A stretch of DNA of 64,000 nucleotides from a virus: positions 1 to 64,000 of IMG/VR virus record IMGVR_UViG_3300043270_000050. One strand, 5' to 3'. Both the position numbers and the translations under genes were made by a program. The notes below the pieces were generated by a model. That model searched no databases, was not told the origin of the DNA, and worked only from the letters and a program-made list of their open reading frames with translations. How positions within the stretch are numbered: the first letter of the stretch is position 1; each line of letters starts with the position of its first letter. Shown here in pieces: positions 8,946 through 56,270 of this stretch.

Positions 8946-9781
8946 AGCCTTTTCTCAAGTGGGTGGGCGGCAAAGGGAGGCTCGTCGACACCCTCCGAGA
9001 GCTCATGCCCTACGAGCTCGACCACCTACAGCTTGTCGAGCCTTTCCTCGGGGGAGGCGCTGTGTTCTTCGCCTTGGAGCCTCGCCGGGCCGCTCTGAGC
9101 GACACGAACGCGGCGCTCATCAACACCTACGAAGTCGTCCGGGATCGAGTCGATGAGCTCGTCGGGCAGCTCAAGGGCCTTGAAGCATCGCACAGCCCTG
9201 AGCTCTACGCGCTCACGCGCGAGAACTTCAACCGGTCGCAGCTCATCCGCTCGGCGGAGCAAGCGGTCAAACAGGCCGCGCGGTTTATCTACCTCAACCG
9301 GACGTGCTTCAACGGCGTGTGGCGCGTCAACGGGGACGGCAAGTTCAACGTGCCGATGGGCGACTATAAAAACCCGACGATCTGTGACGAAGAGACGCTG
9401 TATGCAGCCTCGAAGCTCTTGCGCACGCCGATCCTATTCCCCGGGGGCTTCGATAGGGCGCTTCAACGCAAGTGGTACGGACCTTCGGATTTCATCTACC
9501 TTGATCCGCCCTACGAGCCAATCAACGAGACTTCAAACTTCACGAGCTACGCGCAGAGGGGCTTTTCGCAGGAAGATCAGCGGAGACTCCACGACACGAT
9601 GCGCGAGTTGACGCAGACTGGAGCATTCATTATGCAATCGAATAGTGACACCCCGTTCATTCGGGAGCTCTATAAGGACTTTCGTATCGAAGCGATCTCC
9701 GCTCCTCGATCAGTAGGCGGCGCCCGCTCAGCGAGCGAGGTTGTCATCCTGAACTACGATGAAAACGGGCGGGTGAGATGA
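8942..9781 (+). CDS. dam: N6-adenine DNA methyltransferase, Dam (D12) class
   Basis: KWVGGK, FLGGGAVFF (AdoMet site) and LDPPY catalytic motif. GTG start overlaps the upstream TGA. Confidence 0.9.
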   Translation: MKPFLKWVGGKGRLVDTLRELMPYELDHLQLVEPFLGGGAVFFALEPRRAALSDTNAALINTYEVVRDRVDELVGQLKGLEASHSPELYALTRENFNRSQLIRSAEQAVKQAARFIYLNRTCFNGVWRVNGDGKFNVPMGDYKNPTICDEETLYAASKLLRTPILFPGGFDRALQRKWYGPSDFIYLDPPYEPINETSNFTSYAQRGFSQEDQRRLHDTMRELTQTGAFIMQSNSDTPFIRELYKDFRIEAISAPRSVGGARSASEVVILNYDENGRVR

Positions 9782-20334: not shown

Positions 20335-23172
20335 TTATGGTACCATCGATGAAGACCGGCCTTTTTCAGCGCGGTGCTCCTTTTCGCCTTTGAAAAGAAG
20401 GAACGCCGCCCCTGCAGCGGCGAGAAGCGCAAGGCCCCAGTTTCCGCCACCTTTTGCAGGCGGTGGCTCCGGTGCGGAGGGCTCCGGAGCCGGCGGCGGT
20501 GCGCTCGGCTGCTCGGGCTCCGGCGAGGGCTCGAAGGGCATCGGCCCAGGGATCGGTGGCGGCGCCGGCATCGGCTGAGGTTCCGGGAGCGGAACGATGG
20601 GCGCAGGGCCCGCGGGGATGTCGACAGGCCCCTCGTCGGTCTGAATGACGGACGGTTGGATGACGGACGGTTGGACGGGCTGCTGGATGGGCTGCTGCGA
20701 GGGGAAGACAGGCTGCGTGAGAAACGCATCGGGCTTGTCGACCCGCCCTGTGACGTAGGCCGGATCCGTGATCGCTACCGTCTTCTTTTTCTTTGGAAGC
20801 GGCTCCTCATCCGACTCACGCAACGGCCCCTTTTTGCCTCGCGCGAGGAAGTTCTTGGACAGGCTTTGAACTGTCTGCGCCACCTCAGGGGTGAGCCGGA
20901 TGTAGTTCGCGCCCTTCGGCGTCTCGGCGAGGTCGCCGAACACGCCGTATAGACCATTCAACGCCTTCGATGACTTTTTCACCGAGAGCAAGCGGTTCGT
21001 GAGCGCCTTCCATTTACCGGCAGGGATATTCGGCCGGCCCCACAACTTGTCGCTGAACGTCTCGTAGAGCGCCTTGCTCGTGTTTTCGTCCCAGCGACCA
21101 GTGAGCTTGATTCCGGGCAGCATCGGCCCCGGAATGACGCCTTCCTTCTGCCGTTCGCGAACCTCGCTGAGAGCCTGTTGAAGCGTCGAGACGGGCACCT
21201 GCACGGTCGCTGCTGCGACGCGGCTCGCGAGGTAGTCGTCGACCTTCTTTTCAACTTCTTGGACCCTCTTTGCGTCGGCCTCTTTTTTCTCGACAGCCTT
21301 CTTGACCGTCTTGAAATTACTGGCAGCCGCCTTCACCGCGCTTGCGTATTGCTCGGGAAGCTTGAGGGTCTTTTTGTCCTTCGAGACCAGGTGATTTTTG
21401 AACGCGCGCTCCCACACCGGGAGGGCTTTCGCGGGAATGTTTGCAAAGCGCAAGAACATCGTCTCGGTCGTTGCGTCCCATTCGTGTCCCGAGGAGACCT
21501 TCGGGAACTGGCCTTTGTAGGCGTCGACCTGATTTGCGAAACGGAGGGCCTGCTTCACTTCGAGGGCCGTCACGCTCGACGTGGAGAGCGCGACGATCTC
21601 CTGCACACTGAGGCGTAGCGCCCCCTCTTTGACGAGCGCGGTCTTCGTCTGCGGAACGACCTCGAGGCCGTACTGCTTCGAGATCTGCGAGGTGCCGTTG
21701 AGCTTTCGCGCCTTGGCGAGCGCAGCCCACGCGTCCTGGAGCTCCTTCTCGTTCTTCGGCTGTACCCGAAACCCGCGAAGCACGACCCCGAGCTCGTTCT
21801 GAGAGATCGGCTCGAGCTTCACTGTAGAAGGCTTCACCCCTCCCGGCGCGGGCTTCTTTTCCGCCTTCGCACTGACCGGGATGCCCTTCGGCTCGGCCTT
21901 TTGGTCGCCCGCTTGCCCCGAGAGCTCTGTGAAGGTCTTTGGGTCGACCCACGCCTCGATGGGGCCTGCGCGGTCGAACACGCCATCGAGCTTTCGACGT
22001 ACTGCGGCCTGCCTCCACGCCGCCGCGGTCTTCGGGCCGAAGTCACCGTCGCGCTTGATCGCGACGCCGAGCCGGATGAGCACATCCTGCGCTTGGCCGA
22101 CGTTGATTTTGGTGAGCCCACTGCGACTGGGATCGGTCGGCTTCGCCTTCGTTTTTGTCGACGGCGTTGGAGGTTTAGGTGCAACCCCTGTCCGGACCGC
22201 GGCTGCAGCCGCAGTGAGCGCTTGGAACGTGGCAGGATCGACGAACGCCTCGTTCGGTGCTGCGCGATTGAAAACGGGGTTGAGCTTGCGCTTCTGCGCC
22301 GCTGCCTTCCACGCGCTCGCGGTCTTCGGGCCGAATAGACCATCAGCCGCGATCTTGGCGCCGAGCGTGACGAGGACCTCCTGCGCCTGGCCAATGTTCA
22401 CGCGTGCGAGCGCGGTCGACGTGGGCTTTTGCCCGGCCGGCGACATAGAAGGCTTCGTCGGGGTGCCCGCAAGCTTTCGCCGCACGTCAGCGAGGGTCAT
22501 CGGCGTGGGCTTTGCGCTGCGAGCGCGCACACGCAGGCTTGCGAGAGCTTCGGGGTCGACGTACACCTTCCACACATCCCCCACCACCGGATGCGTGGTT
22601 CCCGAGACGCGAAACACGCGCCCCAGGTACAACCACACGTCCCGCAGGTCCGGTCCGTAGGGCGTCGCGACCGGGATGTCGATCCCGAACGCGCGGGCAA
22701 TTTGCGCCAGGGCGCCCGTCTTCTCGACAATGCCCCCAGGCCCCGGTGCGGATGTCGGTGCGACCGGCAGAGGCGGGGGCGGCCCGTATTTCGATGCAAC
22801 CGGCAGAGGCGGAGGCGGACCGTACTTCGACGCGGCGGGCACCGTCACCGCCGCGGGCGCGCTTCGCGCCGACTCCGCCTGGAGTTGCCTCAGCGTTTTG
22901 GTGGCGAGCAGCTTTTTCGTGACGGGCTCGAAGAAAAACTGATCGCCCGGCAACAAAGACTTTCCGCCGACCGTGCGCGGCGTGCCGAGCGCGATAACCT
23001 GATTGCCTGACGCATCGGGCAGCTTCAGGTCTTTCTTCGTGCTCTTTGCCTGAAGGGCTTTCGCGAGCGAAAACCAGGTCGTTGGCGTCGTCGCGGACGG
23101 CGTTGCACCGAGCTCTCCATTTTCGTGGAGAACCCCGAGATACTCAGCCAGCTGTTCGCTCAAAAAGTCCAT
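20335..23172 (-). CDS. large protein with two peptidoglycan-binding (PG_binding_1-like) repeats, Pro-rich region and C-terminal TM (945 aa)
   Basis: GQAQEVLVTLGAKIAADGLFGPKTASAWKAAAQ and GQAQDVLIRLGVAIKRDGDFGPKTAAAWRQAAV match the DG.FG..T motif. ASKYGPPPPLPV is duplicated. C-terminal WGLALLAAAGAAFLLF. Confidence 0.7.
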   Translation of the reverse strand: MDFLSEQLAEYLGVLHENGELGATPSATTPTTWFSLAKALQAKSTKKDLKLPDASGNQVIALGTPRTVGGKSLLPGDQFFFEPVTKKLLATKTLRQLQAESARSAPAAVTVPAASKYGPPPPLPVASKYGPPPPLPVAPTSAPGPGGIVEKTGALAQIARAFGIDIPVATPYGPDLRDVWLYLGRVFRVSGTTHPVVGDVWKVYVDPEALASLRVRARSAKPTPMTLADVRRKLAGTPTKPSMSPAGQKPTSTALARVNIGQAQEVLVTLGAKIAADGLFGPKTASAWKAAAQKRKLNPVFNRAAPNEAFVDPATFQALTAAAAAVRTGVAPKPPTPSTKTKAKPTDPSRSGLTKINVGQAQDVLIRLGVAIKRDGDFGPKTAAAWRQAAVRRKLDGVFDRAGPIEAWVDPKTFTELSGQAGDQKAEPKGIPVSAKAEKKPAPGGVKPSTVKLEPISQNELGVVLRGFRVQPKNEKELQDAWAALAKARKLNGTSQISKQYGLEVVPQTKTALVKEGALRLSVQEIVALSTSSVTALEVKQALRFANQVDAYKGQFPKVSSGHEWDATTETMFLRFANIPAKALPVWERAFKNHLVSKDKKTLKLPEQYASAVKAAASNFKTVKKAVEKKEADAKRVQEVEKKVDDYLASRVAAATVQVPVSTLQQALSEVRERQKEGVIPGPMLPGIKLTGRWDENTSKALYETFSDKLWGRPNIPAGKWKALTNRLLSVKKSSKALNGLYGVFGDLAETPKGANYIRLTPEVAQTVQSLSKNFLARGKKGPLRESDEEPLPKKKKTVAITDPAYVTGRVDKPDAFLTQPVFPSQQPIQQPVQPSVIQPSVIQTDEGPVDIPAGPAPIVPLPEPQPMPAPPPIPGPMPFEPSPEPEQPSAPPPAPEPSAPEPPPAKGGGNWGLALLAAAGAAFLLFKGEKEHRAEKGRSSSMVP

Positions 23173-28656: not shown

Positions 28657-29625
28657 CTAAATAATCGTCGCGCCCGCTCGATGCACGTCTCGCGTCACAT
28701 CTTGCTCGTCGATCGCAATGTAGTGTCTGAAAAGTGTTTGAATGCTCGCGTGTCCAGCGATTTTGGCGAGCGTCGCGAGAGGAACGCCTCGCCGATAGAG
28801 CCCCGTGATGTAAGTTCGACGCATCGTGTGCGGCGTGAAATGAATGCCGAGCGCTTCTCGCACCTCGTTGATCGCGATGTCGAGTGTCCGGCGGCCAATC
28901 GGCAGTTGGCCTTTTCGATTGCGCTTGCTGAGTTTTCCGGGAAAAACCCACGGGCCTGGCAGGTTTCGACGATAGCCTGTGAGATACCCGGTCAAAATCG
29001 GCACCCCTTCATCCAAAAGGGGTACCGTTCGAATGCGCCCGCCCTTGCCTTCAACGCGAAGGGCGACCGCACGTTTGCGTACACCGTCCTCTAATGTGAG
29101 CTCCACGGTTCGAATAGAACTGAGTGGAAGCGACATCATCTCCTGGGCTCGAAGACCGGTGCACGGAAGCAGCATCACGGCGGATCGACCCGGTTCTAGC
29201 AACCGATCCGCTGCATGAAAAAATGCCCCCAGTAAATTCGGCGCGAGCGCTTCTCGCGTATTGCTTGCGATCACCCGAGGGGTCTCGGGGTCACTGAGCG
29301 GTGCAACTTTGACCCCTTGATTTGCCACCCATTTTAGGTAGCCTTTGATACCCGCTATGTAGACGCCGATCGATGACGGGGCGTAGTCTTGCTCGACCAA
29401 AGCGTCGACATACTGACTCAAAAGCCCGCGAGGAAGTTCCTCAAAATTGGTGTACCCATTTTGTCTTACGACATTCAAGAAAATCTCGACCGCCGGTACA
29501 TATTTCTCCGCGGTCGCGGTCGACTTCACCTTGAGCAGGTGTTTTCTATAGGCCTCTGGAGAGACGTCAACGTCAGCCACGCACACCCCTCCCCGCGCGA
29601 AAACGTAAAGACGCGCGAGCCGCAC
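28657..29625 (-). CDS. int: tyrosine recombinase / phage integrase
   Basis: N-terminal SAM-like core-binding region. Catalytic signature TGLRAQE..., HTMRRTY (HxxR), GHASIQTLFRHY (His...Tyr). Confidence 0.85.
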   Translation of the reverse strand: MRLARLYVFARGGVCVADVDVSPEAYRKHLLKVKSTATAEKYVPAVEIFLNVVRQNGYTNFEELPRGLLSQYVDALVEQDYAPSSIGVYIAGIKGYLKWVANQGVKVAPLSDPETPRVIASNTREALAPNLLGAFFHAADRLLEPGRSAVMLLPCTGLRAQEMMSLPLSSIRTVELTLEDGVRKRAVALRVEGKGGRIRTVPLLDEGVPILTGYLTGYRRNLPGPWVFPGKLSKRNRKGQLPIGRRTLDIAINEVREALGIHFTPHTMRRTYITGLYRRGVPLATLAKIAGHASIQTLFRHYIAIDEQDVTRDVHRAGATII

Positions 29626-30947: not shown

Positions 30948-31540
30948 ACTTCTTGCCCTTGTTTCTACGACGACGACGTCCACAAGCCCTTCGCGCGCCA
31001 CGCACTCGTTACGTACGCCCCGGAGATACCTCGATTTTTTCATCGGGAAGACGTTCTACTCCGGGACGGACAATCTATTCCAGAAAGATGTAAAACCTTG
31101 TGCCATCCTGTCGAGCGATCCTTGGCTCGCCGCTGGCCGCATATCTAAACTCGGAAAAGGCTTCAAAAAAGCGAGAATTGCAACCGCAAAAAAAGCTTCT
31201 CGCTGTCCGACTCACCGGAACCCCCAAGTTGTGGAACATGTCTACGAAAAGCTACCCCCTCCTCAACAAGCGCTTAGGTCTTCCCCCTCAAGCAGAATTT
31301 TGGGATGAAACGTGGCCGACGTTCTGTAAGAACGACCTACCGGGAGTCGACGGGTGGATTTCGAGCGCCGGGATCCGACCAGGCAAGACCCTTATGCGTT
31401 CGTAAAAAACGCACGACCCATACAGATCCCCCCAGAAAAACGCGCGATGGCTCACACGACCATGCGCTGGCCCCTTGGACCTAGAACGTATTTCCGGGCA
31501 TAGGGTGACTCCTTATCCGTCGCGCCCGTGAAGGCCAGCG

Positions 31541-31756
31541 CTAACCCTTCCTCCGCTCCTGCGTTCGAAGCCACGCCTCGACGATGTCAAGCACATCCCC
31601 GAGGCCCCACACGCCCTTCACTCCGGGTAGTTTTTGATCCCCCTCGACGCAGCCGAGAAGCCACCAATCCGCCCCGTCTTTGACGATGCACGTGGCGTTC
31701 GTCGGCGTGAAAGCAAAACGCTCCGCGATGCGTCGAATCCGCTCAGAGGGGGGCAT
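31541..31756 (-). CDS. hypothetical protein (71 aa), last gene of the rSAM cassette
   Basis: Overlaps the rSAM gene end by 14 nt. Confidence 0.45.
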   Translation of the reverse strand: MPPSERIRRIAERFAFTPTNATCIVKDGADWWLLGCVEGDQKLPGVKGVWGLGDVLDIVEAWLRTQERRKG

Positions 31757-32894
31757 ACATCTTTTCTACCTCGGCGAGCCGAGTGCGGCTATATCCCGCC
31801 TCGTCCAGGTAGTCGCGCATGAAGGCCATGCACCGAGACGCGATAGGACACGGTTTTGAAAGGTCTTCACGCGGGTAGCGTGTTGCAAATAGAGGCCACC
31901 CCGTGCACGCGTGCTTGAAGTCACAGCTCGTGCACCGCGTGTTTTGCTCAACGACCTCTTCCTCGAGGCTCTCCCGGTAGCGCGGCGACGCGATGATCTC
32001 CTCGTAGGTCTGCTCGAGCAGATTTCCAAGTTTCTTGGACTCCGTGTAGGCGTGCTGGACGAGGTAGAGGTCACCGTTCGTGTTGACGACAAACACCCGG
32101 TCGCCACCGACGCGCCGGTCGTAGCGGGGGATCCGCAGGCCTGCGATGTTGCGAAGGGCGACCTCAAAGTACTCCGTCAGGGGGACGACGGGCACCCGCA
32201 GGTCGACGATCCAGTGCCGGAACAGCACCTCGAGGGCCTGCACGAGCTCGTCGCTCGAGAGGGCGAAGCGCTCGGAGGGCCGCTCGTCCGGCCCTTCGAA
32301 CAGCGGGAGGATGCGCATCGACATCCCCTGCGAGGCGAAGAATTCGTACACGCGCGCGACCTCGCGCGCGGTGTGGCGGGCGAGCACAGCGATTCCGCCC
32401 GGATTGAAACCAGCCTCGCGCACCCGCGCGATGTTGCGGATCACGTCGCGCTCGGTCTCCCGCCCGTTCACCGACAAACGCACCCCGGGGACGACGTCAC
32501 ACGACACGCTAATCACGAAATCCATGTCGTGTATCAGTGCAATCTGTTCGTCGGTGATGCGGTACAGATTCGACTGGATGTTATTTGGAAAATGGTCGCG
32601 ATTGAAGCTTCTATTTCCAAACACTTTGTGCTGTAAAGCCCGCACTTCCTTCATGTAGTCGACCGGCAAAAGAAGCGGCTCGCCCCCGTGCCAGACGATA
32701 GACGAGCGCGTTGGGCGGCCACATCGACGCGCCTCGAGGTCGTTGTGGGAACGGATCGCGACAAGGATCCGCTCCCACAACTCCATCGACATGCGCCGCG
32801 GGTCGCCGAGCTCGTTCCACTCGTAGCAGTACGCGCAACGCAGGTTGCACAGCTTGGACGTCTTGATCACCCACGTCAGCGACCGCGGCTGCAT
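31743..32894 (-). CDS. radical SAM enzyme with C-terminal SPASM-like Cys-rich domain
   Basis: CNLRCAYC (CxxxCxxC) at residues ~16-23. WHGGEPLL. C-terminal CTSCDFKHACTGWP and CPIASRC clusters. Confidence 0.85.
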   Translation of the reverse strand: MQPRSLTWVIKTSKLCNLRCAYCYEWNELGDPRRMSMELWERILVAIRSHNDLEARRCGRPTRSSIVWHGGEPLLLPVDYMKEVRALQHKVFGNRSFNRDHFPNNIQSNLYRITDEQIALIHDMDFVISVSCDVVPGVRLSVNGRETERDVIRNIARVREAGFNPGGIAVLARHTAREVARVYEFFASQGMSMRILPLFEGPDERPSERFALSSDELVQALEVLFRHWIVDLRVPVVPLTEYFEVALRNIAGLRIPRYDRRVGGDRVFVVNTNGDLYLVQHAYTESKKLGNLLEQTYEEIIASPRYRESLEEEVVEQNTRCTSCDFKHACTGWPLFATRYPREDLSKPCPIASRCMAFMRDYLDEAGYSRTRLAEVEKMYAPL

Positions 32895-32900
32895 TGCGGG

Positions 32901-33173
32901 CTACTCCCGGACCAGCTGCTTGTACTGAACGAACACGTTCGCCCAGCTCGCCGAGCCTCGCTGGTCGAGTTCCCGCTGGTAGCCGTCCTGGTGGTACTCG
33001 GCGAACCAGTCGTCTCCGACCGGGCTCACCGCCCCCCAGTTGATCCCCGAGAGGACCGGCGCGACGAGGGGGGCGCTCTGCGCGTCCGCCTCGTCTGCCC
33101 CCCCCGCGACTGCCCCGACACTCGCCGCGGCGAGCGCCGCTGCAACAACCCGATTCATTTTCTCTTGGTCCAT
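32901..33173 (-). CDS. 90-aa secreted mini-protein (candidate rSAM substrate)
   Basis: AAGGAAAAAAGGAA-ATG at 33173. Signal peptide NRVVAAALAAASVGAVAGGADEADA. Cys-free mature part with INWGAV and ASWANVF motifs. Its stop lies 6 nt before the rSAM ATG. Confidence 0.55.
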   Translation of the reverse strand: MDQEKMNRVVAAALAAASVGAVAGGADEADAQSAPLVAPVLSGINWGAVSPVGDDWFAEYHQDGYQRELDQRGSASWANVFVQYKQLVRE

Positions 33174-33207
33174 TTCCTTTTTTCCTTTGCAGTTCGAAGA
33201 GGCGCGA

Positions 33208-33801
33208 CTACTCCCCTTCAAAGTCGAACGGATAGACAACCGAGACATCACCCTCCTCTTCAGGAGGGTCTATCTCGAGCGTGTAGAGCGTCTCGCGCAT
33301 GCACTCGGTGAGCTCGGGGTTCGCAAGGGTCGGCAAGAGCGAGACCTCGGTGATGAGCCCCCCGACATCGGGGTCGCCTTCGATGGTGAAAGCAACCGGG
33401 ATCCGACTCGAGAGCGACGAGTCTTGCGCCTTCGCCATCTGGTAGCACTCCTCGAGGAGCGGCTTGATCTCGTCCATGCGCTCGCGGATGTATTGCTTGG
33501 TCGTCAGCTTCGTGGGAGACGCGGGGGGCTTAGGCCCTTCCGAGGCCTCGAGCGCGGCGGCAAGCTTGGTCTGTGCGAGCGCGTGAAGCAATTCTTGACG
33601 TCGTTGCACGGTGATGCGTCGCGGAGACTCTTTGACTGCCTCTTTTTTGGGCAGCACTACATCGTCCACGCTGAACGGCGCAATATATCCGCCCGAAGGA
33701 ATCTCCTCTTCAGGAGGGCGCCTCGAAGAGGTGTCGCGGAGCCACCACATCAGAATGCCGAGCATGATCAGGAGCGCCGCAGGCAGTAGATTTTTCACCA
33801 T
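33208..33801 (-). CDS. N-terminally anchored periplasmic-type protein with two-Cys C-terminal beta domain (197 aa)
   Basis: TM segment LLPAALLIMLGILMWW, a Pro/Glu linker, then a C-terminal domain with ...EECY...TECM... Confidence 0.55.
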   Translation of the reverse strand: MVKNLLPAALLIMLGILMWWLRDTSSRRPPEEEIPSGGYIAPFSVDDVVLPKKEAVKESPRRITVQRRQELLHALAQTKLAAALEASEGPKPPASPTKLTTKQYIRERMDEIKPLLEECYQMAKAQDSSLSSRIPVAFTIEGDPDVGGLITEVSLLPTLANPELTECMRETLYTLEIDPPEEEGDVSVVYPFDFEGE

Positions 33802-33869
33802 GCGGTCGAGACTTAGTCAAAAAAGGGTATCTGCGCAAACGATAAAACCGTAGTATCCGTGTAACCAAT

Positions 33870-35010: not shown

Positions 35011-35586
35011 ATGACAGGCATGACTCGCGGACTCGCCGACCCCGAGAGGCTCATCGTACGAGGCTTTCAAGAAGGCAAAAAGTCCTGGCTCTACATCTGG
35101 CCCCCCCGCGGCCCGAAGATGAAGCTCACCCACGAGGTTTTGGAGGGGCTCGGCGACCGCCTAGTCTCCCGAGACGTTGTACTCGCGAAAATTCTTTCCG
35201 AGAGGGCGATCAAGCAGCGTGAAAAAGCACTCGCACATGCCACACGCTATATCCATCCAGAGTTTCGCGGTCGAACCTATTCAAAACTAAAAACGCGACA
35301 GACTTTTCAAAAGCTGAAATCCGGTGTGAGCTTGCCGACCCAAACAACGTTCGGTCCGCCGGTTCTTGCGGGGCTCGAAAAAGCCCTGACCTCGCAGGCC
35401 CGCAAAAAACTCCCTTCAAGCGCATTCGCCCTCGCCGGCAGGCGCTACCCCGTCCACGACTGCTCCCACGCGCGCAACGCGCTCTCCCGGGCGAGCATGT
35501 CGTATCATCGGGGGGCCCTCTCCAAGCGAGAGCGCGATATCGTCGTCCGCAAGGCGCGCGCCGCCGTGCGACGGCTCTGCCACTGA
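35011..35586 (+). CDS. hypothetical basic protein (191 aa)
   Basis: Coherent ORF. The antisense ORF 35210-35800 looks spurious. Confidence 0.5.
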   Translation: MTGMTRGLADPERLIVRGFQEGKKSWLYIWPPRGPKMKLTHEVLEGLGDRLVSRDVVLAKILSERAIKQREKALAHATRYIHPEFRGRTYSKLKTRQTFQKLKSGVSLPTQTTFGPPVLAGLEKALTSQARKKLPSSAFALAGRRYPVHDCSHARNALSRASMSYHRGALSKRERDIVVRKARAAVRRLCH

Positions 35587-37602: not shown

Positions 37603-40600
37603 TTGGGCCAGCTATTCTTCATTCCGGAGTTGTCCGTAGGCGCCGGAGGAGACGTCGTCGGTCCCGCGTCGGCGACCGACAACGCGGTCGCGCGTTTCGA
37701 CGGGATCACCGGCAAACTCATCCAAAACAGCGTGATGATTGTTGACGACGCGGGCAACACCACGACGCCCGGCACCGTCAATGGTCGAAACATCGCGGTC
37801 GACGGTGCAAAGCTCGACACGATCGAAACAGGCGCGGACGTCACCGACTTTGCAAACGTCTCCGCAGCTCTCGGAGGAGCCGCCGGCGCGAACATCGGTT
37901 GGATTTTCAAGAGCGACGGGCTCGGCAGCGGCACGATGCAGCCGAACACCTCGTCTATCGCGCGCTCCATCACGGTCGGTCTATCCGGGGACGTCGACTA
38001 TACCTCAGTTGCGACAGCAGTTGCCGCTGCGATTTTAGGGGGTGCGAGCGCCGCAACACCGTGGCAAGTCTTGGTCTACCCCGGAACGTACATCGAATCC
38101 CCTTTCACCTTGCCACCGGGAGTTATCGTCACCTCCGTTAATGGCGAGGGTGAAAATATCGTTATCCTCGCCGCTGCCAACCCCCTCGTCGACTTCGTCA
38201 CCCACACCGGTGGAGCACTCATCGGCGCGACGATCCTCGGCGTCACCGACCCCACGGCAGCGCTGATCCGCATGGCGACCCCTGGCGTGCCGGGGGTGCT
38301 CATTAAGGTGAACATCGGCACTTGCTCCAACGGCCTCATTGTCGAGAGCGGAGCCATGGGTGTCGCGATCCGCTGCACCACGGCGGTCGTCGCCCCTGCG
38401 ACAGGAATAGGCACCGCATTTGCCGTCACGGACGCAGGATCACAGCTCCTTTTGCAGCAATTGGCCGCAACAGTCCCAACCGCGGTTTTGCCCGCCTACC
38501 CTGGCGTCAATCCTATCGAGACGACCATCAGCGTCATGAGCGGAGCGCTAGCTCAAATCCTCACAAGTTCAATCATCGTCGCCGCCAACACCGCAACCCA
38601 GGCGGGGGTGTACGTCGACGACTCTGCCTTCGCCGATCTGCAATCCACCACGTTCGCCGACAACGCCACAGCGGTACGCATCGGTACCGTTGGGACGTCC
38701 TCTGTCTCCCTTCTAGCTTGCGCGTTTTCGAACAATACGATCAACCTCGAATCACTAAGCGCGGTCGGCGAATTTCGCGGATATCTATCGGTAGACGACC
38801 AAAAGTTCTCGCTCGTCGCCGGAACGACCTTCTCCGGGTCGGTGCTGAACGCTGCGACAGACCACTTCGACGCCTTCGCGCTCACGGGCGTCTATCCTGC
38901 CACGTTCGCAGAGCTCGACATCTTGGATTGGTTCTTCCGGTTCTCGAGCTCCGCATCGTGGGACGGCGGAACGCTCTCGGATGGCGGCGGGCTGAATGTC
39001 GACATCGCCGCCGGCACCGGAATCATCAAGCGCACCTCGGACAGCGACACCTACTCAGTCTCGTGGCTTGGCGCGACGATCCTCCTGCCCGCGTCCGTGA
39101 CGCGCTTCATCTCGTACAACTCGACAACGGACACCCTTGTCGCGACCGCAGGGGCCCCCTCGAACGCGGACATCTTGCTCGGGGTTGTCGTCACCGGCGC
39201 CGCCGCAATTCGGTACATCCACAATACGAACTGGACGAGCTCGAGCCTTGCCAAAAAGATCCGAGACTACTTCTATACGACGCGCCGCGTCATCGCGATC
39301 TCGGGCCTCGCCGGACAAGTCGGATCGGGTCCTACGAAAATCACGGTCAACGCCGGGTCGTACTATCTCTCCTTCGAAATCATCTCGTACGCAGGGGCCG
39401 CCGACGCAATCTTCAATGCCTTCTACGGCACGGACGGCGTCAACGAATTAAGCGCACAGACCGACGTCAACACAACCGACTACGACAACGCGGGCGTATT
39501 GACCGCGATGACCGCGGGCTATTTCCGGTCGGACACGCTCTATCTGACAAGCGACGGCCGCCTCTCCCTCCTCTTCGGGACCGCTGAATTTGCAACTCAG
39601 CTCGCAGCGGAAGGCGAGCTTCCCGCTCTGCCAACCTCCTTTCTCGAGCAGAGCGCAATCGCCATCGCGTCATTGATTGTCGAAGAGGGGGCTGGCATCG
39701 TCTCGGTCCTCGACCGCAGACCCTTCGGCGAGCCGGCGGGCGGCTCGACCGGCGGCGGAGGGGTGAGCGACCACGGCGCTCTCACAGGCCTCGCGGACGA
39801 CGACCACCTTCAATATCTTCTCGTCGACGGCGCGCGCGCGATGAGTGGCTCCCTCGACATGGGGGCGCAAAACATCACGAACGTTGGGCTTGTCGATGGC
39901 GTCGACGTACCCGCCCACGCTGCCCGCCATCTCCCCGGCGGGGCTGACGCGCTCACCACAGGGGCCCCCTCGAACCTGCTTGTGGGGGGCGGCAACGTCA
40001 CGGGCGTCGCGGCCTCGTTTGCTCGGGCTGATCACCTACACGGCATCACACGCGGGACGCCGGTCACCATCGGGACCGCGAACGCTGCGGGCGTCTCCTC
40101 TGACTTCGCGGGAGCCGACCACGTCCACGCCCATGGAAATCTAGCCGGCGGGAGTTTGCACGACCTCGTTATCGCTTCGGGCGCTGCCGGTTTCATGAGC
40201 GGCGCGGACAAGGCGAAGCTCGATGGACTTCCTTCAATCGCCCCCTCAGCGATTCTCTTGTGGGGGTCCAATACTATCACCCGCTCAACAACGACACGCT
40301 ATCTTTTCCCTTCCTACGCAAATGACACTGCGTTCACCACTCCCGTTCAATGGAGAAGCCCGCGCGCGGGTACGCTCCAAAACATGCGAGTTAGACACAA
40401 CACTACTGCAGGAAATGGCAACACCATCGTCTATACCGTGCGTGTAAACAATGTGGCGAGCGCCCTCACCGTATCTCTCGCCAGCACCGCCTCGGACGGC
40501 TCCGATCTGGTCAACACTGTCGCGATCGCCGCGGGAGATTTGCTCGACATACAGGTCACAAAAGCGCTCGATATCGCGTCAAGCCCCAACGACATCATGG

Positions 40601-40620
40601 TTTCCCTGGAGTGCGCCTGA
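37603..40620 (+). CDS. tail spike/fibre-type protein with probable beta-helix domain (1005 aa, TTG start)
   Basis: GAGGGGAAAGGG before the TTG. N-terminal GP.SATDNAVARFDGITGK motif, GFMSGADKAKLDG motif, and DDDHLQY, ADHLHG, ADHVHAHG motifs typical of phage fibre proteins. The 130-330 region has pectate-lyase-like periodicity. Confidence 0.65.
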   Translation: MGQLFFIPELSVGAGGDVVGPASATDNAVARFDGITGKLIQNSVMIVDDAGNTTTPGTVNGRNIAVDGAKLDTIETGADVTDFANVSAALGGAAGANIGWIFKSDGLGSGTMQPNTSSIARSITVGLSGDVDYTSVATAVAAAILGGASAATPWQVLVYPGTYIESPFTLPPGVIVTSVNGEGENIVILAAANPLVDFVTHTGGALIGATILGVTDPTAALIRMATPGVPGVLIKVNIGTCSNGLIVESGAMGVAIRCTTAVVAPATGIGTAFAVTDAGSQLLLQQLAATVPTAVLPAYPGVNPIETTISVMSGALAQILTSSIIVAANTATQAGVYVDDSAFADLQSTTFADNATAVRIGTVGTSSVSLLACAFSNNTINLESLSAVGEFRGYLSVDDQKFSLVAGTTFSGSVLNAATDHFDAFALTGVYPATFAELDILDWFFRFSSSASWDGGTLSDGGGLNVDIAAGTGIIKRTSDSDTYSVSWLGATILLPASVTRFISYNSTTDTLVATAGAPSNADILLGVVVTGAAAIRYIHNTNWTSSSLAKKIRDYFYTTRRVIAISGLAGQVGSGPTKITVNAGSYYLSFEIISYAGAADAIFNAFYGTDGVNELSAQTDVNTTDYDNAGVLTAMTAGYFRSDTLYLTSDGRLSLLFGTAEFATQLAAEGELPALPTSFLEQSAIAIASLIVEEGAGIVSVLDRRPFGEPAGGSTGGGGVSDHGALTGLADDDHLQYLLVDGARAMSGSLDMGAQNITNVGLVDGVDVPAHAARHLPGGADALTTGAPSNLLVGGGNVTGVAASFARADHLHGITRGTPVTIGTANAAGVSSDFAGADHVHAHGNLAGGSLHDLVIASGAAGFMSGADKAKLDGLPSIAPSAILLWGSNTITRSTTTRYLFPSYANDTAFTTPVQWRSPRAGTLQNMRVRHNTTAGNGNTIVYTVRVNNVASALTVSLASTASDGSDLVNTVAIAAGDLLDIQVTKALDIASSPNDIMVSLECA

Positions 40621-46212: not shown

Positions 46213-47721
46213 ATGAAATACGGGATCGTCGACGCCTACGGGCAGATCAACATTGTCCGCCTAAAGGGCGGATCGCCCGCCAACATCATGGTAATCGACT
46301 CCCTGTTCGGGGATGTCTACATAGACCTCCTCAACGGGATCTCTCTTGGCGACGACGGGACAGATTTCAACCTCACGACGGGGGGCGGGCAGGGCTCGGG
46401 CGCGGGAGGGAACATTGTTCTCAACGCCGCCGACGGAGGTACGAGCGGCGGCGGGGGTATTGTTCAAATCAACGCGGGCGACGCCGGGGGCGCAGCCACC
46501 GGAGGCACCCTCGAGCTTCGCACAGGCGACGGAGGTAGTACGGGGGTCGGCGGGGATATGACCTTCGTTGCCGGAAACGGTGGGACCGTTTCAGGAAACG
46601 GCGGCGGGATCATTCTTCAACCCGGTAAAGGTACCGTTCAGGGGGTCATCATTCTCCGAGCGCCTTCAACCGGGACCGCCCCCGAGCTCCGCTTCGAGGA
46701 CGCCGCGGGAGGAGAGTACGTCGGCTTCAAAACGGTAGGCACGCTCTTGAGCGGAAGCCTCACCTACACGCTCCCGTCCGCCGCGCCGTTGGTGAGCGGA
46801 TACGCGTTGAAGTCGACAACCTTGGGGGTCATGTCTTGGGGCCCGGTAGGCGACGTCGCAGGCCCCGGAGCGAGTACGTCGACCGCGATTGCAACTTGGA
46901 ACAACACCTCCGGGACGCTGCTCGCCAACAACTCTCTGCAAATCTCCGGAACCGATCTACGCGGCATAGACGCCTCAGGAACCGGAGGGAATGCAACCTT
47001 TCGCGCCGGCGACTCCACGGGCGACGTCGGAGGAATGCTCACGTTGCGCGGAGGAGAAGGCGACATCGGAGGCGGAAACGTCCAAATCCAGGGCGGAGAC
47101 GCGACAACCTCCGGAGACACCGGAGGAGTCGGCATCTCTACCTTCGATGCCCCGACCTCTGCCGACAACGCCGGCGACATCAACCTCTTGTGCGGAGACA
47201 ACACGGCCTCGTCGAATGAAAATCGACCAGGAAGCATTCGCCTCATTCCAGGCGCCTCGAGCAGCACTCTCGGCGGGAAAGTTTTCATCGACCCTCCGAT
47301 CGGAACCATCCCGATCATTCGCACGGAGAGCAACACCGAAGACATCGTTGTCGGCTTCACCCCCGGCTCGAGCGCGACACGAGGAGCGATTGTCGTCTCA
47401 AGAACGCCTACGGAGCTCGCAGCAGCGGGGCCTCACTCTGTGCGCGCTGGGGCGGTCAATCGCGTCGATGCCTCAAGTTTTTCGCCTCAAGAAATCGTCC
47501 TCCCCGCAGCAGCTACATGTGCAGGACAATGGACGTGGATTATCAAAACTACGACTGCAGGAGAGATAGAAGTGACTATCTCCGGGGGAGAATCGTTCTA
47601 CACCGCAACAGGCCTCGTCACAACCTATACAACCTCTACCGGCGGGACGAGCCGAATAGGTCTAGCCTCATTCAGCGACGGATCCATCCACTACCTGATG
47701 ACCCTGTCGTTCGCCTCGTGA
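46213..47721 (+). CDS. glycine-rich fibre paralog 3 (502 aa)
   Basis: MKYGIVDAYGQINIVR N-terminus, PELRFED...YVGFK module, GPGASTSTAIATWNNTSGTL motif. Confidence 0.65.
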   Translation: MKYGIVDAYGQINIVRLKGGSPANIMVIDSLFGDVYIDLLNGISLGDDGTDFNLTTGGGQGSGAGGNIVLNAADGGTSGGGGIVQINAGDAGGAATGGTLELRTGDGGSTGVGGDMTFVAGNGGTVSGNGGGIILQPGKGTVQGVIILRAPSTGTAPELRFEDAAGGEYVGFKTVGTLLSGSLTYTLPSAAPLVSGYALKSTTLGVMSWGPVGDVAGPGASTSTAIATWNNTSGTLLANNSLQISGTDLRGIDASGTGGNATFRAGDSTGDVGGMLTLRGGEGDIGGGNVQIQGGDATTSGDTGGVGISTFDAPTSADNAGDINLLCGDNTASSNENRPGSIRLIPGASSSTLGGKVFIDPPIGTIPIIRTESNTEDIVVGFTPGSSATRGAIVVSRTPTELAAAGPHSVRAGAVNRVDASSFSPQEIVLPAAATCAGQWTWIIKTTTAGEIEVTISGGESFYTATGLVTTYTTSTGGTSRIGLASFSDGSIHYLMTLSFAS

Positions 47722-47728
47722 GGGTTCT

Positions 47729-50700
47729 ATGAAATACGGAATTGTCGACGCCTATGGACAGATTCGGCTCGTTCGCGACAACGGCACCTCCCCCGCCGCG
47801 AACATGACGCTGGACTCATCCGTTTTCAGCTCGGTGTCCCTCAACTTTGCAACGGGTCCTACGGCGGCTACCCCCGGCACCTCATTCAACATCACGGGCG
47901 GCACTGGCAACACGACGGGCGCCGGAGGAAGTCTATCTTTCAGCGCGGGCACCGGTGGGGCGTCCGGAGGTCTAGGCGGAAGCTTTTCTATCACCGCAGG
48001 CTCGGGCGCCGGCGGCGGAAACGGCGGAAATGTCAACCTCACCCCTGGAGGCGGAACGACCCAAGGCACGGTGAGGCTTCAACCTCCCTCCGGAGGGACC
48101 TCACCCGAGCTTCGTCTATTCGAAAACTCCGGCGGATCCGACTACGTCGCGATCAAAGCACCTGGAACCCTTGCAGCCCCTTGGACCCTCACGCTCCCTT
48201 CGAATGACGGCAACACCGGGGAGTTTTTGCAAACGGACGGTTCCGGCACAACCTCGTGGCAGCCAGGAGGGAATGTCTCAGGGCCGGGGGCGAGCACCGA
48301 CAACGCCGTTGCAACATGGAACGGTACAGGCGGCACGACCCTTCGCAACACCGACCTCACCTACGCAACGGGCTCGCTTCAAAGAACTGCCGGATCCGGC
48401 ACGCTGACTATCACTACCGGCGCAAGCGCTACCCCAGGAGCTGTTGTTCTATCGGGCGGAGCCGGCACAGGCGTCGTAGCGGGCGCCTCTGCAACAGTAC
48501 AAGGGGGAACACCGACGGATGGAAACGGAGGGGGTGTTTCACTCCTCGGAGCCGCAGGCGTAGGAACAAACCGCGCAGGCGGAACAATCACCCTCACCGC
48601 AGGAAATTCTACCGGAACCGGGGGGCCTGGAGGCATCACCCTCACCGCAGGAACCGCGACAGGAACCGGCACCGCCGGAGGAAACGTATCGATCAGCGGT
48701 GGATCCCCTACCGATGGAAACGGCGGGAACATTTCCATCACCGCCGCCAATTCTGCAGGCACCAATCGAAGCGGCGGGACCGTCACGATAACCGCCGGCA
48801 GTAGAAACGGTTCAGGGGGTGGGAGCACGCTCACGCTCACCGCAGGCGCCAACACAGGAAATGGAGCGGGAGCCAATGCATCCCTCACCGGAGGTGCGGC
48901 CACAAGCGGCAACAACGCCGGCGGAACCGCCACTCTACGCGGAGGAAATTCTAACGGCACGGGTACCGCTGGAGCAGCCTTCGTTCTAGGGGGAAATGCC
49001 GCGAGCATCACCGGCAACGGTGGCCCCGTAAACATCACCGGAGGGGATGCCGGTACCAGCGGCACTACCCCAGGAAACGTCACTATCGCCGGCGGCGTAG
49101 CTTCAACCACAGGGGCCGGGGGAAGCGTTCTCATAACCCCCACCTCTACAGGTGGAAGCGCCTCCGGCGCCACCGCCGCAGGCACGTTCACGGTCACAGG
49201 AGCTCAAGGGAACATCGGCTCCGACATCATTTTGACCGCAGGAAACACTTTTTCCGGAGGAGGTACAAGAGGCGGAAACGTTTCCATCACTGCGGGTACC
49301 GGGCAAGGCGCCACAGGCTCACGCCTTGCCGGAAACGTCACGATCACGAGCGGTAGCGGCGCAAGTTCCGGTGGGAATATATCTATCACCGCAGCTGCAG
49401 CGAGCTCGACCGGCGGCGGCATCACTCTAACCACCGGTGCGGGTACAAGCAGCAACGGCGGCGCCTTGGCCTTCGTGTGCGGCTCCGGGACCATCGGCGG
49501 AGGCGTCTCGATCACGGGCGGCGCGGGAACCGCGGGCGGAGGCGGCGGGTTCACCTTCACCGGAGGGTCTGGTTCAAGCGGCATCGCGGGGGGCGCTTTC
49601 ACCGTCACCGCGGGCACCTCCGCCACGGGTTTAGGTGGAAACGCAATCATCACCGCAGGCACCGCCTCGAGCGGCACCGGCGGTTTTGCAAGTCTCATTG
49701 GAGGAACCGGATCCACCAAAGGCGGCGTCGCTACCCTACGCGGAGGCATCGGCTCTGCCGGCGCCGGAGGCGACACCCTCGTCACCGGCGGCACCCCCGC
49801 TTCAACCAGCGTGGGGGGCGATACCGAGGTCACCGGAGGTCCGGGAGGCTCGAGCTCGGGCGCCGGCGGTATCTTGCTCGCCCACGGCGGCGACACCACC
49901 ACTGCAAGCAACGGAGGCGCTGCCACCTATCGAGGCGGCAATTCAACTTCTTCGGGAGGGGGAGGTAGCGCCACTTTTTCAGGGGGAACGTCTTCTTCGG
50001 GCTCGGGAGGTATCGCTACTTTCTCTGGGGGTTCTTCAACCTCGGGCGCGGGAGGCGCCGCCACTTTTTCAGGTGGAAACGCGTCCACCAACAACGGCGG
50101 GTCTGCAACTTTCAAAGGCGGTGATTCAACCTCCAGCGGCAATGGTGCAAGCGCCACCCTGAGAGGCGGAGACGCAGCAACCGGAAACGGGGGATCGCTC
50201 ACGATGCGCAGCGGCGCCCCGGGAGGCACCGCCGGCACTGGAGGCGACGTCTCTCTCACCGCGAGCGCGGGCGGATCAAGCACAGGAGACGGCGGAGACG
50301 TCACGATCTCCGCGGGCAACTCGAACGACGTTCCTGGTTTTGTCGACATCAACGGCGGCGTTTCGCTTGGAGCTCAAGATGGCGGAGCCATCACCGCCAA
50401 TGCAGGCGGCTCGAGCTCAGGGACAGGCGGCGCGTTCACCGCGACTGCGGGAAACAGCACCACGGGTGCAGGAGGAAACGCGTCTATCACCGCAGGTGCA
50501 GGGGCCACCGCGGGCGGAGACGTACTCATCACCGCGGGAGACGCGACGACCGCAGCGGGCGATGTTCAACTTCGACCAGGTGGCGATGGAAATGCAAACT
50601 CGGGCGTGGTGGTCGTCACCCCCCTCGAGACGACCCAAAATGCGGTCATCCGCGCCGGCACGAGCAGCCGAGATTTGTACGTCGGAGGAATTCCAACCTC

Positions 50701-51052
50701 TTCCGCTGCGTTCGGTGCGGCAGTCGTTCACCGCACTCCCGCGGTCGTCACCGCAGCAGACGATCCTGTGTCGGTCGTCGCGGGCAGCGTCAATCGCGCG
50801 GACATCACCGCCGGCGGCACCCTAGACCTCGTGCTCCCCGATCCCGCCACTTGCGCAGGCATTTTCACGTTCGTCTATAAAATAGACCTCTCCGCCAACG
50901 ATTTCACCGTTTCAACTCCTGCAGGGACCATCTACATCGAGGACAACAACGGTGCTTCCGTGAGCATCAACCCGCTCCTCGCCGCCGAACGCCGATTGAT
51001 GATGCTATGGTCGGACGGATCGGACTACTACAGCATCCCTAGAGTCCTTTGA
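47729..51052 (+). CDS. glycine-rich fibre paralog 4, giant form (1107 aa)
   Basis: MKYGIVDAYGQIRLVR N-terminus and PELRLFEN...YVAIKAP module, then ~800 aa of GG(N/T/S)-x-(T/S)-(I/L)-T-(A/G)-G type repeats. The C-terminal ~120 aa resemble the C-terminus of paralog 3. Confidence 0.65.
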   Translation: MKYGIVDAYGQIRLVRDNGTSPAANMTLDSSVFSSVSLNFATGPTAATPGTSFNITGGTGNTTGAGGSLSFSAGTGGASGGLGGSFSITAGSGAGGGNGGNVNLTPGGGTTQGTVRLQPPSGGTSPELRLFENSGGSDYVAIKAPGTLAAPWTLTLPSNDGNTGEFLQTDGSGTTSWQPGGNVSGPGASTDNAVATWNGTGGTTLRNTDLTYATGSLQRTAGSGTLTITTGASATPGAVVLSGGAGTGVVAGASATVQGGTPTDGNGGGVSLLGAAGVGTNRAGGTITLTAGNSTGTGGPGGITLTAGTATGTGTAGGNVSISGGSPTDGNGGNISITAANSAGTNRSGGTVTITAGSRNGSGGGSTLTLTAGANTGNGAGANASLTGGAATSGNNAGGTATLRGGNSNGTGTAGAAFVLGGNAASITGNGGPVNITGGDAGTSGTTPGNVTIAGGVASTTGAGGSVLITPTSTGGSASGATAAGTFTVTGAQGNIGSDIILTAGNTFSGGGTRGGNVSITAGTGQGATGSRLAGNVTITSGSGASSGGNISITAAAASSTGGGITLTTGAGTSSNGGALAFVCGSGTIGGGVSITGGAGTAGGGGGFTFTGGSGSSGIAGGAFTVTAGTSATGLGGNAIITAGTASSGTGGFASLIGGTGSTKGGVATLRGGIGSAGAGGDTLVTGGTPASTSVGGDTEVTGGPGGSSSGAGGILLAHGGDTTTASNGGAATYRGGNSTSSGGGGSATFSGGTSSSGSGGIATFSGGSSTSGAGGAATFSGGNASTNNGGSATFKGGDSTSSGNGASATLRGGDAATGNGGSLTMRSGAPGGTAGTGGDVSLTASAGGSSTGDGGDVTISAGNSNDVPGFVDINGGVSLGAQDGGAITANAGGSSSGTGGAFTATAGNSTTGAGGNASITAGAGATAGGDVLITAGDATTAAGDVQLRPGGDGNANSGVVVVTPLETTQNAVIRAGTSSRDLYVGGIPTSSAAFGAAVVHRTPAVVTAADDPVSVVAGSVNRADITAGGTLDLVLPDPATCAGIFTFVYKIDLSANDFTVSTPAGTIYIEDNNGASVSINPLLAAERRLMMLWSDGSDYYSIPRVL

Positions 51053-55996: not shown

Positions 55997-56270
55997 CTCA
56001 CCTCCGTAGAAAGATGAAAGGACTATAGTGGTCCTTGCAGAACGACACCACTGCCTGTAGGGGTGCTGTATTTCCGCTTGACCTTCATCCGCCCACAAGG
56101 CACTAACGGCGGCAGTAGGGAGGCGAGACCGCGAGATTGACCGCGGTCCCACCGGGGGCGAAGTGTCCAAAGCACTTCTCGCTCCTCGGGGTCGCCCCGC
56201 AAAAAAGGCGCGCTTCGAAGGAGTTGAATGTGTTCGTAACCCGCGAGGATGCCGAGCGCAAGGATTTTCA

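Follow-up and report, generated by a model that had tools for sequence, protein, structure and literature searches.

A minus-strand cassette pairing an atypical SPASM-type radical SAM enzyme with a signal-peptide-bearing small protein on a putative viral element

Organisation of the cassette and its small and anchored proteins

The DNA analysed here is a stretch of 64,000 nucleotides (the window) corresponding to positions 1 to 64,000 of the IMG/VR virus record IMGVR_UViG_3300043270_000050. The minus strand between positions 31541 and 33801 carries four open reading frames (ORFs), which encode a membrane-anchored protein of 197 aa, a small protein of 90 aa with a signal peptide, a radical S-adenosylmethionine (SAM) enzyme and a 71-aa product, in that order (Table 1). 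A preliminary description had presented this set as a virus-borne radical SAM/SPASM cassette and as a candidate maturation system for a protein or for a peptide that is synthesised on ribosomes and modified after translation (RiPP). The four ORFs are located where it placed them. All are coding-like in the ORF list of the window, with GC contents of 0.74–0.86 at third and 0.42–0.49 at second codon positions that resemble those of the neighbouring genes, and the same genes appear in public calls on identical contigs. The described spacing of 6 nt between the stop codon of the small ORF and the start of the radical SAM gene is present, as is every motif that had been quoted: CNLRCAYC, GGEPLL and the C-terminal Cys set in the enzyme, and GINWGAV, SASWANVF, YHQDGYQRE and QYKQ in the small protein.

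The cassette lies between a gene-free stretch of 593 bp, described earlier as about 590 bp of non-coding DNA, and a divergent spacer of 68 bp, and both flanks agree with the public gene calls. On the plus strand beside the spacer is a RuvC-like resolvase gene. The cassette promoter presumably lies within the spacer; a promoter consensus scan identified no sigma-70 consensus there or in the non-coding flank. The gene-free stretch contains no Rfam family, tRNA or promoter consensus and is a possible attP site or regulatory region, and no Rfam family was found anywhere across 28–36 kb of the window. A hairpin followed by a T-run downstream of the last ORF possibly marks the end of the transcription unit, though it is a weak consensus match of a kind seen at five sites where 3.2 are expected.

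The last ORF (71 aa) is probably coding and co-transcribed, with a GC content of 0.74 at third codon positions. It has no match in Pfam, NCBIfam, PHROGs or PADLOC, and no homologue was found downstream of the radical SAM gene at the related loci L001, L003, L055, L061 and L063. It is an unconserved passenger, so that of the four-gene cassette first proposed only three genes form the conserved unit.

The signal peptide that had been claimed for the small protein is visible by inspection in all its parts: an n-region with K5 and R8, a 17-residue h-region (VVAAALAAASVGAVAGG) and a c-region in which ADA precedes Q32, giving an AxA site for signal peptidase I. The n-region contains N-R and not R-R. 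Of six small-protein homologues, four have the AxA site at this position, those of L001, L060 and L061 among them. Translation bears out that the mature part, Q32–E90, is free of Cys. A search of 5.8 billion proteins returned the 90-aa protein itself as the sole match, and its relatives were found through synteny; no Pfam or NCBIfam model matches it or nine partner proteins of relatives.

The six small-protein homologues share the invariant residues W46, A58, E59, Y65, D70 and W77. Their mean pairwise identity is 67% in the h-region (V.AAALA.ASVGAVA) and 58% in a block of the mature part, DWFAEYHQDGYQRELD in the window and DWFAEYHQDGYxRELD as a consensus, falling to 24% in the linker and 19% in the C-terminal tail. 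The tail carries a variable aromatic motif, ASWANVFVQYK in the window, which appears as NNWDGVF in L001, SNWGDVF in L055, GNWGWW in L063 and L003 and IGWWKIW in L060 and L061. The aromatic-X-X triplets of the small protein are WGA, YHQ, YQR, WAN, FVQ and YKQ. RiPP precursors are usually recognised by an N-terminal segment that is conserved and a C-terminal tail that varies. What is generally sought in such systems, an adjacent precursor whose recognition segment is conserved and whose core varies, is present here, with a conserved mid-block intervening. Signal peptides normally drift. Because this one is unusually conserved, it probably doubles as a leader that is recognised by the radical SAM enzyme.

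The first gene of the cassette encodes the 197-aa protein, which had been described as anchored and as having two Cys residues in a C-terminal domain. The hydrophobic anchor is present, and the two residues, C119 and C167, are invariant in 10 homologues, as is an EIDPP motif. The C-terminal domain matches the AgmX/PglI C-terminal domain model of NCBIfam (NF033768; 7.1e-11, 42.1 bits against a cut-off of 40) over residues 102–194, and Pfam TonB_C gives no match on this protein. The AlphaFold2 model has a predicted local distance difference test (pLDDT) score of 72 for the whole protein and of more than 80 for its C-terminal domain, with a disordered linker. The top Foldseek matches of the domain are all C-terminal domains of TonB, TolA, HasB or FusB, at weak E-values of 5e-3 to 1. 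The protein is therefore predicted to be anchored in the inner membrane and to present a periplasmic AgmX/PglI-type domain that resembles the C-terminal domains of TonB and TolA. It shares its topology (N-terminal anchor, linker, alpha/beta C-terminal domain) with TonB, TolA, AgmX (GltJ), PglI and GltG, but it is much shorter than GltG and GltJ. Unlike TonB and TolA, it lacks the conserved His (SHLS) for coupling to ExbBD or TolQR; no His occurs in its transmembrane helix.

The order of anchored protein, small protein and radical SAM enzyme is kept at L001, L060, L061, L063, L062 with L055, and the chromosomal locus L019. The arrangement is not due to chance, as at least six further metagenomic elements, each independent, show this gene order. 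In L001, a 201-aa anchored protein and an 87-aa small protein precede a radical SAM enzyme that is 73% identical to that of the window, and the gap between the small ORF and the radical SAM gene is 6–11 nt in these two cassettes. The enzyme of L061 is 67% identical. L062 and L055, which overlap by 6 nt, are the ends of two contigs of a single sample and jointly give the trio, preceded by ParA and ParB genes. L003 (enzyme 65% identical) is a contig with RepA/TrfA that has no anchored protein and keeps a divergent upstream ORF, the last 22 residues of which (ELDRIGNWGWWHNGQVITKASP) match the tail of the L063 small protein with the shared GNWGWW. In L019 (enzyme 40% identical, 817–1899), the trio occupies a chromosomal locus of a deltaproteobacterial metagenome-assembled genome. 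A second, canonical radical SAM/SPASM gene (SPASM 1.7e-9) is located 2 kb from that cassette, and an arginine decarboxylase adjoins. Co-conservation of the small ORF, the absence of which had been named in advance as a refuting outcome, is upheld in this close clade by synteny and across the family by equivalent upstream genes.

The radical SAM enzyme and the partners of its family

The third gene encodes a protein that belongs to the radical SAM superfamily by its Pfam match (PF04055; 5.3e-15, 56.4 bits against a cut-off of 29.5). The CX3CX2C motif is formed by C16, C20 and C23 (CNLRCAYC) and the GGEP motif by residues 70–73 (GGEPLL, 70–75), and both are invariant across 24 homologues. There is no N-terminal RiPP recognition element (RRE) domain. 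The C-terminal Cys motifs that had been attributed to auxiliary clusters are present and form one four-Cys auxiliary site (C321-x2-C324-x5-C330...C349), but the SPASM region is atypical and retains only the cysteines of auxiliary cluster II (AuxII). The SPASM models are exceeded only marginally (PF13186, 1.7e-6 and 28.6 bits against 21.5; TIGR04085, 29.4 against 27).

For comparison, the AuxI ligands of the anaerobic sulfatase-maturating enzyme anSMEcpe (4K36) are taken here to be C255, C261, C276 and C330, and its AuxII ligands C317, C320, C326 and C348. Among 236 full-length members of the family of the window enzyme, conservation exceeds 98% for the CX3CX2C motif and for the residues equivalent to C321, C324, C330 and C349. 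Where anSME has C330, the family has Pro, Ala, Phe or Tyr but never Cys, and the stretch aligned to C255, C261 and C276 holds at most one Cys in 230 of the 236. The canonical seven-Cys SPASM motif, with AuxI and AuxII, is thus absent from the family. The C-terminal extension is full length (residues ~255–383), and in the alignment its remaining cysteines fall in the AuxII part (CX2CX5C), so the family appears to keep a full-length SPASM-like extension with AuxII only and to have lost every AuxI ligand. A Twitch domain, the truncated form with one cluster at the AuxI position that is seen in BtrN, MoaA and SkfB, was considered and rejected, as the extension is full length and its cysteines lie at AuxII (for definitions of both domains, see PMC10114670).

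The best NCBIfam models are, in order, DynA (2.1e-38), anSME (4e-36), DarW, DarE, AmcB and YhhB, followed by GrrM/OscB and FxsB, and eight of the top ten are RiPP maturases (seven cyclophane-forming plus DarE) or anSME. No curated subfamily is reached among the anSME, DynA/DarE/DarW, XyeB, GrrM, FxsB, YhhB and AmcB models. The scores and cut-offs in bits are 132.2 against 450 for DynA (the NF041298/NF038005/NF041300 group), 104.4 against 650 for DarW, 92.3 against 650 for DarE, 79 against 425 for AmcB, 78 against 445 for YhhB, 39 against 450 for XyeB and 124.9 against 349.45 for anSME (TIGR03942). A search of the Protein Data Bank (PDB) with a profile of the 24 homologues returned anSMEcpe (2e-33), ChlB (5e-18) and then CteB. 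The AlphaFold2 model (pLDDT 91.4) gave fold matches with template modelling scores of 0.6–0.7 to anSMEcpe (about 0.68), ChlB (about 0.70), CteB and SuiB; viperin (about 0.5) and MoaA were clearly poorer, and MoaA and SkfB were much weaker matches. Grouping with nucleoside or cofactor enzymes, the other outcome that had been set in advance as refuting, is not seen, and the NCBIfam, PDB-profile and fold rankings all favour SPASM enzymes that modify peptides or proteins.

In a word-indexed search the family has 533 matches at E ≤ 1e-10; an exhaustive search at E ≤ 1e-30 yields 185 representatives of clusters formed at 50% identity. Its members come from Myxococcota, Acidobacteriota, Alphaproteobacteria, Gemmatimonadota, Rokubacteria and other taxa and are annotated only as radical SAM proteins, with no assigned function. 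The enzyme is part of a distinct, unnamed and uncharacterised family.

The upstream regions of 49 genome loci of this family were inspected by reading; a regular-expression count of signal peptides was too noisy and included some wrong ORFs. Most of the 49 loci encode, directly upstream on the same strand, a protein of 80–170 aa that bears a Tat-like or Sec-like signal and ends in an aromatic motif. The Tat-like signal consists of S/T-RR-x-V/A-L-K followed by an Ala-rich stretch, with RR visible in at least 11 loci. The C-terminal ends include SDWFLEFNQ (L018), ANWFAAFWK (L028), ADWFGAFWK (L035 and L039), AAEIKFWE (L015) and SAELFWE (L013). The DWFAEYHQ of the window protein (residues 55–62) is the same motif as the [DN]WFx[EA]Fx[QK]-COOH of these distant partners; in the window it is internal and not C-terminal, and a second related motif, SWANVFVQ, comes after it.

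Other partners are of more distant types. Proteins ending in D[FY]PxDFAP are encoded at L044 and L047–L050, and at L047 three small genes of this kind follow one another, of which two show GG-type leader features (TAEGGAS and NAQGGAS). Tandem acidic, aromatic DGYSDFFVEGGGGSWHEAFGDV repeats are found at L041 (4338–4931), L045 (1228–1755) and L042 (4441–4953) and may represent multi-core precursors. Conventional leader peptides ending in FARSTW or FGRSTW are encoded at L056 and L020. At L056 (2820–11199), a 43%-identical homologue of the enzyme (P0014) is part of a typical RiPP cluster, which also encodes a second radical SAM enzyme, a LanB dehydratase, an ABC transporter, a TauD dioxygenase, a 291-aa protein and a 57-aa peptide with FARSTW at its end, and which looks like an uncharacterised hybrid RiPP class. 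Neighbour clustering over the family loci identified no conserved gene besides the upstream partner, and the cassette holds no usual RiPP protease or transporter genes. Because no other neighbour is conserved, the core system consists of two genes, precursor and enzyme, and this fits export and leader removal by general machinery.

Proposed peptide maturation and competing explanations

The window system is best described as a variant of radical SAM peptide maturation with a SPASM extension that lacks AuxI, a signal peptide that serves as leader and a TonB/TolA-like partner. With slightly better than even confidence, the cassette is read as a compact peptide-maturation system, in which cross-linking is followed by export, carried as cargo of a mobile element. 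The parts of this reading differ in strength. From the sequence data, the small protein is very probably the substrate of the adjoining enzyme, and since the family nearly always adjoins peptides that bear signal peptides, the enzyme most likely cross-links its peptide before export. The cross-link chemistry and its sites are proposed with moderate confidence, on the basis of the family ranking, kinship with ChlB and its YDR activity, the definition of triceptides and the invariant aromatic residues. Export through Sec and cleavage by signal peptidase are assigned from inspection of the sequence; what the anchored protein does, and how the element would profit, are suggested tentatively.

In the proposed sequence of events, the 90-aa protein would be bound in the cytoplasm, probably through the conserved signal/leader segment and the conserved block of its mature part. 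Reductive cleavage of SAM at the CX3CX2C cluster would give a 5'-deoxyadenosyl radical, which would take a side-chain hydrogen near an aromatic residue. At least one intramolecular cross-link, each with a change of -2 Da, would then form on Trp, Tyr or Phe within the region W46–F81. Cyclophane-type C–C links at aromatic-X-X sites such as YHQ, YQR, WAN and FVQ would be expected, C–O links being less likely. AuxII, as the sole remaining auxiliary cluster, would accept the electron. Sec export and cleavage after Ala31 would release a cross-linked peptide of about 59 residues into the periplasm or outside the cell, where the TonB/TolA-like anchored protein may act with it as a binding partner, as an immunity or retention factor or as an aid to crossing the outer membrane; a role as an independent exclusion factor is a further candidate.

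Among the closest parallels are the triceptide synthases (ChlB/YhhB, XyeB, GrrM/OscB, FxsB and AmcB), which likewise lack an RRE, have a SPASM-type extension and adjoin a precursor with aromatic-X-X motifs. Triceptides are defined by cross-links from an aromatic residue to a C-beta within such motifs, and ChlB acts on YDR (PMC11499958). The small protein offers YQR in place of this native motif, and ChlB is the second-best PDB sequence match of the enzyme and the one with the highest template modelling score. For the window peptide, which has such motifs, a triceptide cross-link is a candidate. In contrast to these synthases, the window enzyme scores far under the family cut-offs and has lost AuxI, and its precursor carries a Sec/Tat-type signal, not a conventional leader. 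DarE, DarW and DynA, from Gram-negative bacteria, cross-link at Trp and follow a similar minimal logic of precursor plus enzyme, and DynA is the top curated model. They differ in that the window enzyme reaches 132 of the 450 bits for DynA and the window lacks both DarBCD-type transporters and AuxI. Darobactin and dynobactin have a core of 7–10 residues at the end of a leader, whereas the window precursor has about 59 mature residues and a signal peptide. Bufferins are unusually long RiPP precursors led by a Sec signal peptide, with no dedicated exporter (PMC11626156), and they resemble the window system in the general export and signal-peptidase cleavage predicted for it and in its compact operon. 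Their maturation depends on MNIO and DUF2063 proteins, not on a radical SAM enzyme, and they are Cys-rich with thiooxazoles, unlike the Cys-free, aromatic-rich precursor of the window. The bufferin papers were the only related result of a literature search, which found no radical SAM or cyclophane system with a Tat- or Sec-signal precursor.

Several observations weigh against the proposal of cross-linking and export. The signal peptide was assigned by eye, and aromatic-X-X triplets are frequent in any aromatic-rich peptide. The enzyme misses the cut-off of every curated family, so its chemistry is not transferable by homology. To our knowledge, the characterised SPASM cyclophane synthases retain AuxI; this cluster is absent from the family, and its redox mechanism may therefore differ from theirs. 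The term Tat-like rests on the RR motif, as the Tat model TIGR01409 scores 12.9 against 16.7 on the partner of one relative and gives no match on the others tested. The radical SAM gene is split into two ORFs in L060 (1580–2724) and L063 (2265–3355), which could reflect assembly error or gene decay; L060 has a run of X/N. Finally, a homologue of the anchored protein in L058 (4001–4780) is present without peptide or radical SAM enzyme, on an 80-kb element and 3 kb from a large serine recombinase, and its tie to the peptide may thus be loose. On mobile elements, the anchored protein may also act independently.

The strongest alternative, which is nevertheless considered improbable beside cross-linking and export, keeps the same substrate and replaces cross-linking with another reaction such as anSME-like oxidation, epimerisation or hydroxylation, making the system one of protein maturation and not of a cyclophane RiPP. 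Favouring it, anSME is the best solved structure by both profile and fold E-value and the second-best NCBIfam model, shares the RRE-less architecture and modifies, in the cytoplasm, substrates that bear export signals. The small protein carries such a signal, as sulfatases do, with no dedicated protease or transporter, and many partners of relatives are 110–170 aa long with a folded-looking middle domain, more protein- than peptide-like. It is opposed by the low anSME score (125 against 349 bits) and by the aromatic C-terminal motif, which is the feature conserved family-wide. The window enzyme also differs from anSME in having non-Cys residues in place of C255, C261, C276 and C330. A formylglycine-type reaction in particular is unlikely because there is neither a conserved Ser or Cys in the mature region nor a sulfatase motif: the 90-aa protein contains no C/S-x-P/A-x-R, and no sulfatase gene or domain is found nearby. 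Two further chemistries were rejected. Thioether (sactipeptide) formation is ruled out because the mature peptide has no Cys, and the export signal argues against a cofactor precursor of the pyrroloquinoline quinone or mycofactocin type.

It is unlikely that the enzyme acts elsewhere, on a protein of the host or element or on a small molecule, and that the small and anchored proteins form a separate envelope module for a purpose such as superinfection exclusion. The solitary anchored protein beside the serine recombinase in L058 fits such a module, as do the lack of the usual RiPP protease and transporter and the unassigned function of the radical SAM family. Against this, the enzyme and an upstream gene for a signal- or leader-bearing peptide are paired across phyla without a TonB-like gene, the gaps of 6–11 nt in the window and L001 are short, a homologue is located inside a canonical RiPP cluster, and the enzymes nearest in structure all take peptides as substrates. 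A viperin-type nucleotide-modifying enzyme for antiviral defence or counter-defence is effectively refuted: viperins are among the lower fold matches and PADLOC pVip gives 27.7 bits, but this match covers residues 14–148 only, the generic radical SAM core, with no full-length match, the SPASM-like extension of about 130 residues and its conserved four-Cys site are absent from viperins, and peptide-modifying enzymes score far higher.

The carrying element and the meaning of the cassette

The element that carries the cassette encodes an integrase, a DNA methyltransferase and replication functions (Table 1), and from these genes it looks like a temperate phage. The 945-aa protein may be a virion-associated lysin. 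The 1005-aa ORF also has short local matches to cyanophage regions annotated as tail-fibre genes. The large ORFs at 46213–47721 and 47729–51052 have no detectable relatives, and no capsid, portal or terminase was recognised with PHROGs, Pfam or tblastn on the large ORFs. The virus-borne nature of the cassette is thus plausible from the polymerase, primase-helicase, integrase and tail-fibre-like genes, yet it is unproven while these structural genes go unrecognised. A near-identity DNA search with 25–45 kb of the window against known phages returned nothing, and tblastn of the radical SAM enzyme against phages returned only anSME-like genes at 22–25% identity. A plasmid collection gave nothing at 1e-20, and a pattern scan of IMG/VR revealed no relative. 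The 191-aa protein is one of the few products near the cassette with a match to a phage family.

Table 1. Features of the cassette and of the element that carries it
Feature	Position	Strand	Details
Anchored protein gene	33208..33801	-	197 aa; transmembrane helix ~6-25, low-confidence linker, C-terminal alpha/beta domain ~102-193
Small protein gene	32901..33173	-	90 aa from ATG; 116 aa if upstream GTG used
Signal peptide, residues 1-31	33081..33173	-	By inspection
Mature part Q32-E90 and stop codon	32901..33080	-	59 aa, Cys-free
Conserved block, residues 55-70	32964..33011	-	Triplets YHQ, YQR
Variable C-terminal aromatic motif, residues 75-85	32919..32951	-	Clade consensus [NS]-W-x-x-[VW]-[FW]
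Radical SAM gene	31743..32894	-	383 aa
71-aa ORF	31541..31756	-	14-nt overlap with end of radical SAM gene
Divergent spacer	33802..33869		68 bp; cassette (minus) against plus-strand orf106 and RuvC-like gene
Gene-free stretch	30948-31540		593 bp; lower GC content (0.55)
Terminator-like hairpin and T-run	31441..31458	-	~83 nt downstream of 71-aa ORF
Tyrosine integrase	28657-29625	-	Phage_integrase 1.4e-20; 2 kb from cassette
DNA methyltransferase	8942-9781	+	phrog_56, 2e-72
945-aa protein	20335-23172	-	Peptidoglycan-binding domains PG_binding_3 and PG_binding_1; weak endolysin PHROG matches
191-aa protein	35011-35586	+	C-terminal 60 residues match phrog_16160 (1.2e-17, function unknown); weak DUF6582
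1005-aa ORF	37603-40620	+	25-31% identity over 40-65% of length to uncultured huge phages LR756500, LR745206, LR756502
Prim-Pol/VapE primase-helicase	56163-58496	+	
PD-(D/E)XK exonuclease	58930-60402	+	
Family-A DNA polymerase, NUDIX, RadC	Just past window end		Polymerase at L064 13540-15615

The cassette had also been likened to a moron. Its opposite strand, the weak terminator-like hairpin and its changed position in L001 are moron-like, though the phage nature of the element is unproven; L001 shares several other genes with the window at 12.1–16.9 kb, relative to which its cassette is placed differently. Plasmid-type genes (RepA/TrfA in L003 and ParA/ParB in L062) adjoin close relatives of the cassette, and it is therefore safer to call the cassette cargo of mobile elements than a phage gene. 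The nearest chromosomal relatives of the enzyme are in Polyangiaceae, Kofleriaceae and Nannocystaceae, and together with the AgmX/PglI domain and the GC content of 61% they point to a host of the Myxococcota type.

A broader and more speculative possibility, to which only limited confidence is attached, is that the cassette belongs to a class of signal-peptide-led systems that spans phyla. In this class a SPASM enzyme without AuxI would cross-link the aromatic C-terminal part of its partner, a Sec or Tat signal would serve as leader, and general secretion and signal peptidase would replace the dedicated protease and exporter. Elements of the Myxococcota type would have captured this system along with a TonB/TolA-like protein for a role at the host envelope on behalf of the element, such as superinfection exclusion by blocking or hijacking a TonB-dependent outer-membrane receptor, or delivery of a toxic peptide to competing cells.

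Should the proposed maturation mechanism be correct, a function and a substrate rule could be assigned to a radical SAM family of about 185 clusters (50% identity), and this family would include a SPASM-type peptide maturase that works on AuxII alone, which bears on the unresolved role of the auxiliary clusters. It would also be the second enzyme class, after the MNIO enzymes of bufferins, with RiPP precursors led by general Sec or Tat signals, and genome mining keyed to short leaders, proteases and ABC exporters would overlook such systems. The carriage of the cassette on phage- and plasmid-like elements beside a TonB/TolA-like protein suggests an accessory function directed at the envelope.

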